NCBI GenBank assembly: GCA_023246555.1
Contig: JAHFIC010000002.1
Coordinates: 1 to 49,063, forward strand
Reading direction: 5' to 3'
From: Candidatus Magasanikiibacteriota bacterium
Lineage (GTDB): Bacteria; Patescibacteriota; Patescibacteriia; Magasanikbacterales; UBA922
Length of the DNA stretch: 49,063 bases
The translations under genes were made by a program, and so were the position numbers. How positions within the stretch are numbered: position 1 is the first letter of the stretch; every line of letters begins with the position of its first letter. The notes beneath the pieces are model-generated. The model ran no database searches and had not been told where the DNA came from. It saw nothing but the letters and a program-made list of their open reading frames with translations. Positions 18,231 through 20,333 of this stretch are shown piece after piece.

Positions 18231-20333
18231 CTAAATATCAAGATTTTTCACGTTCTTGGCGTGTGTTTGGATAAACTTTTTTCGCGGTGCGACTTCAGAG
18301 CCCATAAGAATATCGAAGATTTCACTCGCAAGTTCTGCGTCTTCGATTGCTACCCGCTTCAGGATGCGGTTTTCCGGATTCATCGTCGTTTCCCAGAGCT
18401 GTTCTGGGTTCATTTCTCCTAAACCCTTGTAGCGCTGGATGTTCAGTTTGGGTGAGCTTTCGGCTTTCGGCTTTCGGCTGTTAGCTGATTGCTGAGAGCT
18501 GATTGCTGAGAGCTGATCACCCTCTTCCACATTCGCTTCTTGAATATCGGCTTCTGTCACCCCGTGCTTTTTTTTGTACGCGTCCAAATCAGCATCTTTA
18601 TACAACCAGGTCACGTCTTTTCCGGATTTAATGCTATAGAGCGGCGGTTGGGCGATGTAGATATGCCCTTGGTAGATAAGGTCGGGGAAATACCGGAAAA
18701 AGAGCGTAAGAAGGAGTGTCCGGATATGCGCGCCGTCAACGTCCGCATCGGTCATGATGACAATTTTGTGGTAGCGAAGTTTACCAATCTCAAATTGCTC
18801 ACCGATATTGGTCCCCATGGCGATAATCAAATTTTTCAGTTCATTGTTCGTCAAAATTTTGTCGAGTCGCGCGCGTTCGACATTCAAGACTTTTCCTCGA
18901 AGCGGCAGAATTGCCTGCGTGTTTCGATCGCGGCCTTGCTTCGCACTTCCCCCGGCGCTATCGCCTTCCACAATAAACAATTCTGATTGAGATGCATCGC
19001 GGCTTGAACAATCGGCTAGTTTTCCCGGGAGCGTGAATCCCTCCAAGGCGCCTTTACGGAGCACGGTTTCACGCGCGAGGCGAGCCGCTTGGCGCGCTTT
19101 GGCGGCCAGGACGCATTTGCCGATAATGCCTTCGGCATCTCGCGGATGTTCTTCTAAAAAAATAATGAACGCATCAGAGAATACCGATTCCACGGCGGGC
19201 TTTACTTCTGGATTGCCCAGCTTGGCTTTGGTTTGGCCTTCAAATTGTGGTTCCGGAATCTTGACCGAGATGATGGCGGTGAGCCCCTCGCGCACATCTT
19301 CACCGCTCAAATTATCATCTTTTTCTTTTAGGATGTTTTTATTGCGCGCGTACGTGTTGAGCGTTCTCGTGAGCGCGGCGCGAAAGCCGGCTACATGCAT
19401 GCCGCCGTCCGGGTTCGTGATATTGTTGGCAAAGGCGTGGAGCGATTCGTTATAGTCATCGGTGTATTGGAGCGCGATTTCGACCAGCACCTTGTCGACC
19501 TGTTTTTCCACATAAAAAATATTTTCGTGTTTCGGTTCTTTGTTTTTATTGATATGCTTCACATAACTGCCGATGCCGCCTTCAAAGTAAAATTGATGGG
19601 AGTTGTTTTCGTAAGGAGACGCGGACGCATCTTTTGATTTTTCTTCTGCGCTTCGTTCGTCAGCAATGCCAATGCGGACCCCTTTGGTAAGGTAGGCCTG
19701 CTGGCGCAAGTGGTCGAGAATGCTTTTCCACTGATAATCAAGCGTTTCAAAAATCGATGCATCCGCGCGAAATGCCACTGTTGTCCCCGTACTGTTCGAT
19801 TTGCCGATGGCGCGCACTTTGTATTGGGGTTTGCCGCATTTGTATTCTTGCTCCCAAATTTTTCCATCGCGGTCTACGGTTACTTTCATGTGCGTGGACA
19901 GCGCATTCACGACCGACACGCCAACACCATGAAGTCCGCCGGAAACTTTGTAGCCGCCATCGCCGAATTTTCCTCCCGCATGGAGCTGGGTCATGACGAC
20001 CTCAAGCGCGCTGACTTTTTTGACCGGGTGGATATCGACCGGCACGCCGCGGCCGTTATCGGTTACTTCTATCCAGTGATCGGGAAGCAGGCGGACCGTA
20101 ATTGCATCGCAGTGTCCGGCCATGGCTTCGTCGAATGAGTTATCAACGACTTCCCAAATCATGTGATGCAGCCCGGCAGAACCAGTTGTTCCAATATACA
20201 TGCCAGGACGCTTCCGTACCGCATCGAGCCCTTCAAGGACAGTAATTTGCGCGGCACGATATTCCCCGGCGGCGGGTATTTTTTTGGCTGGTTTTTCTGC
20301 AATCCTTCCTTTGAGCACGCGGGTTTTTGGCAT
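18231..20333 (-). CDS. gyrB: DNA gyrase subunit B
   Basis: GHKL ATPase, Toprim (EGDSAGG) and [19 protein letters not shown] motifs; 700 aa. Contains a 21-codon heptamer-array insert. Confidence 0.97.
18456..18518. repeat. heptamer array, 9 x GCTNNNN, in-frame inside gyrB
   Basis: GCTTTCG x3, then GCTGTTA, GCTGATT, GCTGAGA, GCTGATT, GCTGAGA, GCTGATC. The 63 nt encode [21 protein letters not shown]. Confidence 0.9.

Follow-up and report, generated by a model that had tools for sequence, protein, structure and literature searches.

The gyrB gene of a Patescibacteria genome was found to carry nine tandem heptamers that are translated in frame. The gene lies in a 49,063-nucleotide (nt) stretch of contig JAHFIC010000002.1 from a Candidatus Magasanikiibacteriota bacterium, and this whole stretch is called the window below. 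The array was significant against shuffled sequence and specific to its lineage, and it gave GyrB no net gain in length. It was located in a linker that was predicted to be disordered. Its unit vocabulary and its hairpin layout were shared with two arms that bracket a four-helix-bundle gene 1.6 kb away. The 63 bases are probably a genome-specific NNTCRGC/GCYGANN array. Slippage would have extended it in place, in a linker that tolerates sequence change, and the translated peptide would be a passenger. gyrB is an essential gene. Repeats of this kind are known from bacteria, and the unusual feature is the placement of this array, which is palindromic and lies in frame within an essential gene. 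It is no insertion that would put gyrB at risk.

The heptamer array and the GyrB linker

The array consisted of nine GC-anchored heptamers, exactly as an earlier note on this DNA had read them. On the gyrB sense strand it reads GATCAGC TCTCAGC AATCAGC TCTCAGC AATCAGC TAACAGC, and then GCCGAAA three times. The first five of these units form arm B and the three GCCGAAA-type units form arm A (Table 1). Significance was evaluated against 200 shuffled versions of the window that kept its dinucleotide composition. In none of them did nine GC dinucleotides follow one another every 7 nt, and the maximum of five units was reached in 14 of the 200. The pattern GCYKNNN x3 + GC gave 13 matches at 4 places in the 49-kb window compared to 0.08 expected. 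Nucleotide identity within the variable linker part was 0.53 at lag 7 and 0.51 at lag 14, compared to about 0.25 at other lags, and the codon periodicity (3/6/9) was absent. Tandem Repeats Finder gave a period of 7 at 18456-18479 with 3.4 copies and a period of 14 at 18483-18517 with 2.5 copies, both with 100% matches. These perfect sub-repeats indicated local duplication, and 7 + 14 = 21 keeps the frame. A single heptamer was read in all three frames (CGA AAG CCG AAA GCC GAA AGC, giving R K P K A E S). This meant that the repeat exists at the DNA level and that the peptide follows from it. A low-complexity peptide just upstream of a conserved block had been described in the earlier note. Its position was correct, and its residues were off by one, which is trivial; the real segment is D606-S626. 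The arithmetic by which the frame shifts when one unit is gained or lost was also right, and it implies only that such mutants are removed by selection.

Table 1. Positions of the gyrB array, the four-helix-bundle cassette and related features. Coordinates are those of the window unless another locus is named.
Feature	Position	Strand	Details
gyrB	18231..20333	-	700 residues, intact open reading frame; HATPase_c, DNA_gyraseB, Toprim and DNA_gyraseB_C domains
Nine tandem heptamers	18456..18518	-	In-frame translation GyrB D606-S626; plus strand GCTTTCG x3, GCTGTTA, GCTGATT, GCTGAGA, GCTGATT, GCTGAGA, GCTGATC
Arm A, perfect repeat	18456..18476		Plus strand GCTTTCG x3, i.e. GCCGAAA-type units on the gyrB sense strand
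Arm B, perfect 14-nt repeat, 2.5 copies	18484..18518		Plus strand (GCTGATT GCTGAGA) x2 + GCTGATC
Hairpin of arms A and B, extended by GGGTGA/TCACCC	18450..18522	+	Folding energies and z-scores (see text)
GyrB linker, predicted disordered, residues 599-626	18456..18539	-	AlphaFold2; aligned position of the E. coli Toprim insertion
TIGR02436/PF05635 four-helix-bundle (S23p-like) gene	16497..16850	-	E 3e-33; between nusG and rplK
Upstream heptamer arm	16853..16887		Plus strand GCCGAAA GCTGATT GCCGAAG GCCGAGA GCGTCAA
Downstream heptamer arm	16427..16461		Plus strand GCTTTCA GCTGTCG GCTGTCT GCTTTCA GCTACCT; complementary to upstream arm
Cassette with arms, window and L003	16427-16887 (window); 309-781 (L003)		Up arm TTTCAGC/AATCAGC type; down arm GCTGAAA type
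Cassette with arms, L004 and L005	1972-2515 (L004)		Up arm GGACTAC; down arm GTAGTCC
Cassette with arms, L006 and L007	2967-3457 (L006)		Up arm GGACTTC; down arm GAAGTCC
Five-unit GCYK run GCCGAGT GCTGAAG GCTGACG GCCGATT GCTTCTC	44508..44542	+	Inside S-adenosylmethionine (SAM)-methyltransferase open reading frame 44060..44881

The closest GyrB homologues were from Candidatus Magasanikbacteria, a lineage of the Candidate Phyla Radiation (CPR)/Patescibacteria, and the 90%-identity protein cluster of the window GyrB had one member. The linker was taken as the stretch between PPL[YF] and [QK]R[YF]KGLGEM in 120 homologues, which gave 106 distinct orthologue linkers. Its length was 66 residues here compared to a median of 63 and a range of 55-73. 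There was no net gain, so that the wording of the earlier note, in which the array was "inserted" and "adds" a peptide, did not hold. The linkers of relatives were unrelated low-complexity sequence of the same length class, acidic and then basic, and the linker was hypervariable in all orthologues. The earlier note had said that its proposal would be refuted if close relatives had a non-periodic, unrelated stretch of equal length at this position, and such sequence was what the orthologue comparison gave. In the segment described here, the D/E content was in the lowest 1% and the S/Q/N content was the highest among the orthologue linkers.

The segment was lineage-specific, as had been expected. 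The array peptide was found in none of 119 orthologues. In addition, the linker DNA of ten relatives (loci L001, L002, L008-L013, L208 and L209; L numbers denote loci from other genomes) showed the 3/6/9/12 codon periodicity and no lag-7 signal, and the linker of L006 showed only a weak 21-nt duplication with heptamer substructure. Among the other gyrB genes examined as DNA (about 86 loci), no lag-7 hit was located inside gyrB, and two were located just past the stop codon. Heptamer arrays begin immediately past the gyrB stop codon in an Anaerolineae metagenome-assembled genome (MAG) (GGGGTCA; L045 2142-2214) and in a Christensenellales MAG (CAATTGA; L074 7944-8111). A general 7-residue/21-nt periodicity of GyrB linkers was considered and rejected, since the amino-acid identity at lag 7 was 0.142 compared to 0.138 and 0.127 at the neighbouring lags in the 106 linkers. 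In the case of the closest relative, L001 (84% amino-acid identity), the sequence AAAGCCGAAAGCCG was found in frame at the homologous position (KAES before KLNIQ). It corresponds to about two GCCGAAA-type units, and the rest of the array was absent. A seed of about two units predates the split of the L001 and window lineages; alternatively, the L001 copy is the remnant of a longer array.

Within GyrB, the linker separates the Toprim core from the C-terminal tail. The location of the array in the protein was investigated with an AlphaFold2 model built on 62 orthologues. The predicted local distance difference test (pLDDT) score was below 50 for residues 599-626 and about 29 for residues 601-620. 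The region had no secondary structure and was placed between two short strands. This was consistent with the surface loop suggested earlier. No positional conservation of the array region was found among the orthologues, and the C-terminal tail downstream of the array was conserved. In a comparison with solved structures, the C-terminal half of the window GyrB aligned to residues 380-565 and 703-804 of E. coli GyrB, and residues 566-702 of E. coli had no counterpart. By this alignment, the array site corresponds to the exact insertion point of the E. coli Toprim insert, a recognised variable site. In E. coli, the insert folds as a domain of about 170 residues. The gyrB segment is like it in sequence position. 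However, it is about 21 residues long, is predicted to be disordered and is no longer than the segment of sister lineages. The intein PF14890 was found in several GyrB proteins of Magasanikbacteria, namely the homologues P0003, P0071, P0078, P0090, P0093, P0097 and P0099 of 960-1145 residues, and the window GyrB lacks it.

The two arms of the array form a hairpin that is extended by the inverted pair GGGTGA/TCACCC. The 5' half of this pair is native coding sequence, VE(E/G)GD in relatives. The hairpin was much stronger on the plus strand, which is antisense to gyrB. The RNA fold gave −48.7 kcal/mol (z −8.2) for the plus strand and −23.0 kcal/mol (z −2.7) for the mRNA strand, and the DNA fold gave z −5.5 and −0.9, respectively. 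The arm duplex showed the same trend with −49.4 kcal/mol on the plus strand compared to −24.9 kcal/mol on the mRNA strand. This asymmetry is due to several base pairs that are G-U on one strand and become C-A on the opposite strand. A terminator role of the plus-strand hairpin was rejected, since no U-tract follows the stem. The consensus scan gave no plus-strand promoter or terminator site adjoining the array. The Rfam scan of the window gave tRNA-Leu only, with no match at the array and no rRNA. No direct repeat (target-site duplication) was found to flank the gyrB array. In addition, the 49-kb window contained no near-identical full-length copy of it, and the longest tract shared with the neighbouring arms was 10 nt.

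The neighbouring cassette and arrays in other genomes

The earlier note had also stated that arrays of the same heptamer family flank a four-helix-bundle gene near gyrB. Both the arrays and the family relationship were borne out. The two five-unit arms were mutual inverted repeats that paired across the open reading frame (ORF) in the minimum-free-energy fold of either strand, with a duplex of −38.6 kcal/mol. The gyrB array and these arms shared ten 7-mers, three 9-mers and the 10-mer AGCTGATTGC, far above random 63-mers, which averaged 0.5, 0.02 and 0.004, respectively. The unit vocabulary common to both was NNTCRGC/GCYGANN. On the gyrB sense strand, the vocabulary of the up arm (TCTCAGC, AATCAGC) comes before that of the down arm (GCCGAAA), and this order and orientation are the same as around the four-helix-bundle gene. 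The gyrB array belongs to the heptamer family of the four-helix-bundle arms.

Synteny of the four-helix-bundle gene between nusG and rplK extended to five other Magasanikbacteria loci (L003-L007), and heptamer-periodic inverted arms bracketed it in every Magasanikbacteria locus examined. The heptamer changed between lineages and the complementarity of the arms was kept (Table 1). Arm duplexes of the same locus or the same vocabulary were between −35 and −56 kcal/mol, and those across vocabularies were between −9 and −30 kcal/mol. A sense-strand bias of the arms, which would argue for a function at the RNA level, was rejected because the sense and antisense energies were similar. In the case of L208, the nusG-rplK site had no four-helix-bundle gene. 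Its spacer contained only a conserved leader-like hairpin upstream of rplK (11773-11835), GGTTCTCGCAAGAGACGCTTCTC with a GCAA loop, which had no Rfam match at the gathering score. The hairpin is located at 16461-16496 in the window. In filled sites it lay inside the arms, between the stop codon of the four-helix-bundle gene and the down arm. Since this native hairpin was present within the arms and also at the empty site, the arms seem to have evolved in place and not to be the ends of one inserted block.

Similar cassettes were found outside Magasanikbacteria. In the Christensenellales MAG, a four-helix-bundle cassette with CAATTGA arms was located directly after gyrB (L074 7944-8651). A contig with a protein named from Dyadobacter luteus carried the gene between leuC and leuD (L210 940-1421), with the arms CTTCGGC AGTCGGC TATCGGC and GCCGACA GCCGAAA GCCGAAA. 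A Peregrinibacteria MAG carried it between purL and purQ with a perfect 11-nt inverted repeat (L213 983-1389). In a Pirellulaceae copy located in a bacteriophage exclusion (BREX)-like island (L212), no inverted heptamer repeats or short perfect inverted repeats were found.

Metagenomes were scanned with the pattern GCYGRNN x4 + GC. Among the matches listed, the NNTCAGC ... GCTGANN vocabulary appeared in many contigs of 39-66% GC, and the NNTCAGC arm was always 5'. Solo hairpins with loops of 20-60 nt were found in L107 (5522-5639), L127 (3908-4022), L142 (8404-8482), L151 (2545-2646) and twice in L135 (3741-3823 and 6280-6369). Other hairpins enclosed about 440-480 nt of cargo, which was a four-helix-bundle ORF in a soil contig (L099 1924-2446) and another small ORF in L096 (421-974). 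The canonical metagenome arrays were almost never spanned by long ORFs among the matches listed. The gyrB array departs from this intergenic tendency of the class, which is a tendency and not a strict criterion. In about 1 Mb of loci, 27 arrays were found at lag 7 compared to 0-12 at lags 5, 6 and 8-11.

The heptamer vocabulary was genome-specific. In L208 it was AGATTCC, and the ORF of the methyltransferase gene prmC contained arrays of this vocabulary (TCTAGAT TCCAGAT TCGAGAT TCCAATT). The inverted pair GCCATAAGC/GCTTATGGC was also located inside this ORF, and together these segments cover 1144-1200, 1387-1409 and 1555-1584. Thus, gyrB is not the only gene of these genomes with a heptamer array in coding sequence.

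Several other features of the window were recorded. The five-unit run at the end of Table 1 fits the GCYK vocabulary and is located at the conserved RVLKADGRLLL end of a Methyltransf_11 domain. It is probably a chance or codon-level coincidence and was set aside. Between secE and gyrB, a region of 66-70% GC was observed at 17700-18230, compared to about 49% GC for the genome. This island may have been horizontally acquired. It contains a 158-residue ORF (17639..18115, plus strand) with a lipoprotein-like signal, LVASC, and no Pfam or NCBIfam match, a promoter-like site at 17705-17733 and a terminator-like hairpin at 18201-18220. A small ORF at 15656-15901 on the minus strand has a signal-peptide-like N-terminus followed by four GGGVPG repeats, with no family match. 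Tandem Repeats Finder also gave a 30-nt repeat at 36016-36078 (2.1 copies, score 84) and a 24-nt repeat at 28901-28956 (2.5 copies, score 66).

Origin of the gyrB array

Growth in place would proceed as follows. A linker that tolerates almost any sequence of about 55-73 residues would let a repeat process at the DNA level overwrite the acidic-then-basic sequence, with the length class unchanged. The start would have been the seed of about two units, which is present in the closest relative too, and growth would have occurred by replication slippage and small tandem duplications. Only alleles with a net length that is a multiple of three would survive, and the peptide would be a neutral passenger. 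The layout and vocabulary shared with the four-helix-bundle arms and with the hairpins of other bacteria suggested that a heptamer-homogenising process or factor of the genome acted here too.

Several points weigh against growth by slippage. Any one step that adds 7 or 14 nt shifts the frame and is lethal. Stepwise growth would have to proceed in units of 21 nt or by several changes that compensate each other at once, and pure slippage does not fit this easily. Arm B (TCTCAGC/AATCAGC) had no counterpart in any relative. Local slippage alone leaves the likeness of arm B to the four-helix-bundle arms and to arrays of unrelated phyla unexplained, and the likeness to arrays elsewhere would require either a trans-acting factor or a process that homogenises the arrays. 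The two-arm palindrome extended by GGGTGA/TCACCC looks organised and not random. In addition, the history is poorly resolved because the nearest relative has only 84% protein identity. The canonical metagenome arrays were nearly all intergenic among the matches listed, and a copy inside a gene is atypical.

In the main alternative, a palindromic element without cargo, similar to an intervening sequence (IVS) of rRNA, would have replaced an equal length of the linker by insertion, template switching or gene conversion. We regard this as a possible but distinctly less probable origin. In its favour are the arm order and orientation, which are those around the four-helix-bundle gene, and the strong plus-strand hairpin (z −8.2). 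Solo hairpins of the same vocabulary exist in L107, L127, L135, L142 and L151. Versions with cargo exist in Magasanikbacteria, the Christensenellales MAG, the contig with the protein named from Dyadobacter luteus, the Peregrinibacteria MAG and the soil contig, and L208 has an empty nusG-rplK site. The 9-mers and the 10-mer shared with the local arms were significant. However, there was no net length gain and no target-site duplication, and the longest tract identical to the local arms was only 10 nt. The closest relative has a seed of about two units. The four-helix-bundle arms enclose a native leader-like hairpin that is found at the empty site too. In addition, the unit order differed everywhere, so that the arrays are not copies of a master element. 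The "recent solo insertion of a spreading element" proposed in the earlier note was therefore weakened by AAAGCCGAAAGCCG in the closest relative, the lack of a target-site duplication and shared tracts of at most 10 nt, and it is unproven.

A functional element maintained by selection would be either an RNA or DNA hairpin (antisense structure, RNase III or protein site, replication or transcription signal) or a lineage-specific linker peptide. The hairpin is strand-asymmetric (−49 compared to −25 kcal/mol), while the four-helix-bundle arms are nearly symmetric. Such a difference could result if selection disfavoured a stem in the mRNA of gyrB or favoured one on the antisense strand. Heptamer arrays have also been proposed to be regulatory in Nostoc and Beggiatoaceae (bioRxiv 10.1101/2022.06.06.494920; PMC4679880). 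However, the array was not conserved in any relative, it had no Rfam match and no U-tract, and no plus-strand promoter or terminator site adjoined it in the consensus scan. The peptide was in a predicted disordered region with no positional conservation among orthologues. A selected function seems improbable on these grounds. It is very improbable that the array is an assembly artefact, i.e. a mis-join caused by the repeat, or a repeat that was collapsed or expanded when the contig was assembled from metagenomic reads. The window belongs to a MAG contig that has a single record, and the island of high GC adjoins gyrB. However, 63 nt is shorter than a typical read, the ORF was unbroken and kept its frame between conserved flanks, the linker length was normal, and the same vocabulary was found independently in the related contig L003. 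The explanation that deserves the least credence is an ordinary variable linker with a coincidental 7-nt periodicity. In its favour, the linker was hypervariable in all orthologues. However, the shuffles, the pattern count and the lag-7 identity given above effectively refuted it, together with the perfect sub-repeats and the vocabulary shared with the neighbouring arms.

The array was compared with known systems. Heptameric repeats are over-represented in bacterial genomes, where they are mostly intergenic and sometimes form inverted pairs (PMC4692102). Among the Beggiatoaceae TAACTGA arrays, a few are inside ORFs, where they mostly fall in peripheral parts of the protein; the same work relays the idea that slippage is favoured by a polymerase footprint of 7 nt (PMC4679880). 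The gyrB array is like the heptanucleotide simple sequence repeats (SSRs), namely the cyanobacterial short tandemly repeated repetitive (STRR) type, GGGNATC of Xanthomonas and Nostoc, and TAACTGA of Beggiatoaceae. These have tandem 7-nt units with a genome-specific consensus at several loci, and at times they form inverted arrays that are able to fold into stem-loops. Arrays of this class have at least three head-to-tail 7-nt units above chance and one unit consensus at several loci, and both were found for the gyrB array within 49 kb of the genome. In contrast to these SSRs, which are overwhelmingly intergenic, the gyrB array belongs to the reading frame of an essential gene and is located about 290 nt before its end. 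In addition, it is a two-arm palindrome in a CPR genome, unlike the one-way tandem SSRs.

The 23S rRNA IVS of Coxiella burnetii, which is regarded as selfish, has a terminal stem of 28 bp, at which RNase III cuts to excise the element, and it carries an ORF for the four-helix-bundle protein S23p (PMC4990558). Tandem GACAGAT heptamers are located beside this ORF, with 2 or 3 copies depending on the strain (PMC4990558). The cassette beside gyrB is like it in having an S23p/four-helix-bundle ORF in the loop of a long inverted-repeat stem. However, the cassette is in the nusG-rplK spacer of an mRNA operon and not in rRNA. The gyrB array, compared to this IVS, is a stem without ORF cargo, lies in coding sequence and has a weak stem on the mRNA strand. 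No paper was found in the literature that links operon-embedded four-helix-bundle genes to heptamer arms.

Phase-variable contingency tracts are similar in that a perfect repeat inside an ORF has a unit that is not a multiple of three, and a change of one unit shifts the frame. However, the gyrB array has three perfect units only, the gene is essential and single-copy so that switching it off would be lethal, and nothing suggested an on/off function. Miniature inverted-repeat transposable elements (MITEs) and repetitive extragenic palindromic (REP) sequences with bacterial interspersed mosaic elements (BIMEs) are likewise short, hairpin-forming, dispersed, non-coding repeats. Unlike them, the gyrB array brought no net insertion and was not flanked by a target-site duplication, and the 49-kb window contained no full-length copy of it that was conserved. 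The arrays are made of variable heptamer units and do not repeat one sequence.

We also considered a broader and speculative reading, which is doubtful as it stands. Inverted repeats of the form 5'-(NNTCRGC)n ... (GCYGANN)n-3' might be one widespread class of palindromic elements related to the 23S rRNA IVSs. These elements, empty or carrying an S23p/TIGR02436 gene, would have colonised operon spacers (nusG/rplK, leuC/leuD, purL/purQ and just after gyrB) across several phyla. The gyrB array would be an empty copy in coding sequence, with the disordered linker as a safe harbour, and transitions would have weakened its mRNA stem and so spared the message from cleavage.

Implications

The result for gyrB is reassuring. 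The linker accommodates almost any sequence and tolerates the repeat, which is no foreign threat to an essential gene. It also means that repeat processes at the DNA level can write protein sequence into essential genes where a disordered linker leaves room. The more interesting lead is the hairpin-forming, genome-specific heptamer arms around S23p-like genes in conserved operons, which were found in at least four lineages of different phyla. In their layout, the arms and the four-helix-bundle cassettes in operon spacers mirror an rRNA intervening sequence, inside an mRNA operon. If this link to intervening sequences is true, it would give a handle on the long-unexplained over-representation of 7-nt repeats in bacteria and on the four-helix-bundle genes, which are very common and whose function is unknown.

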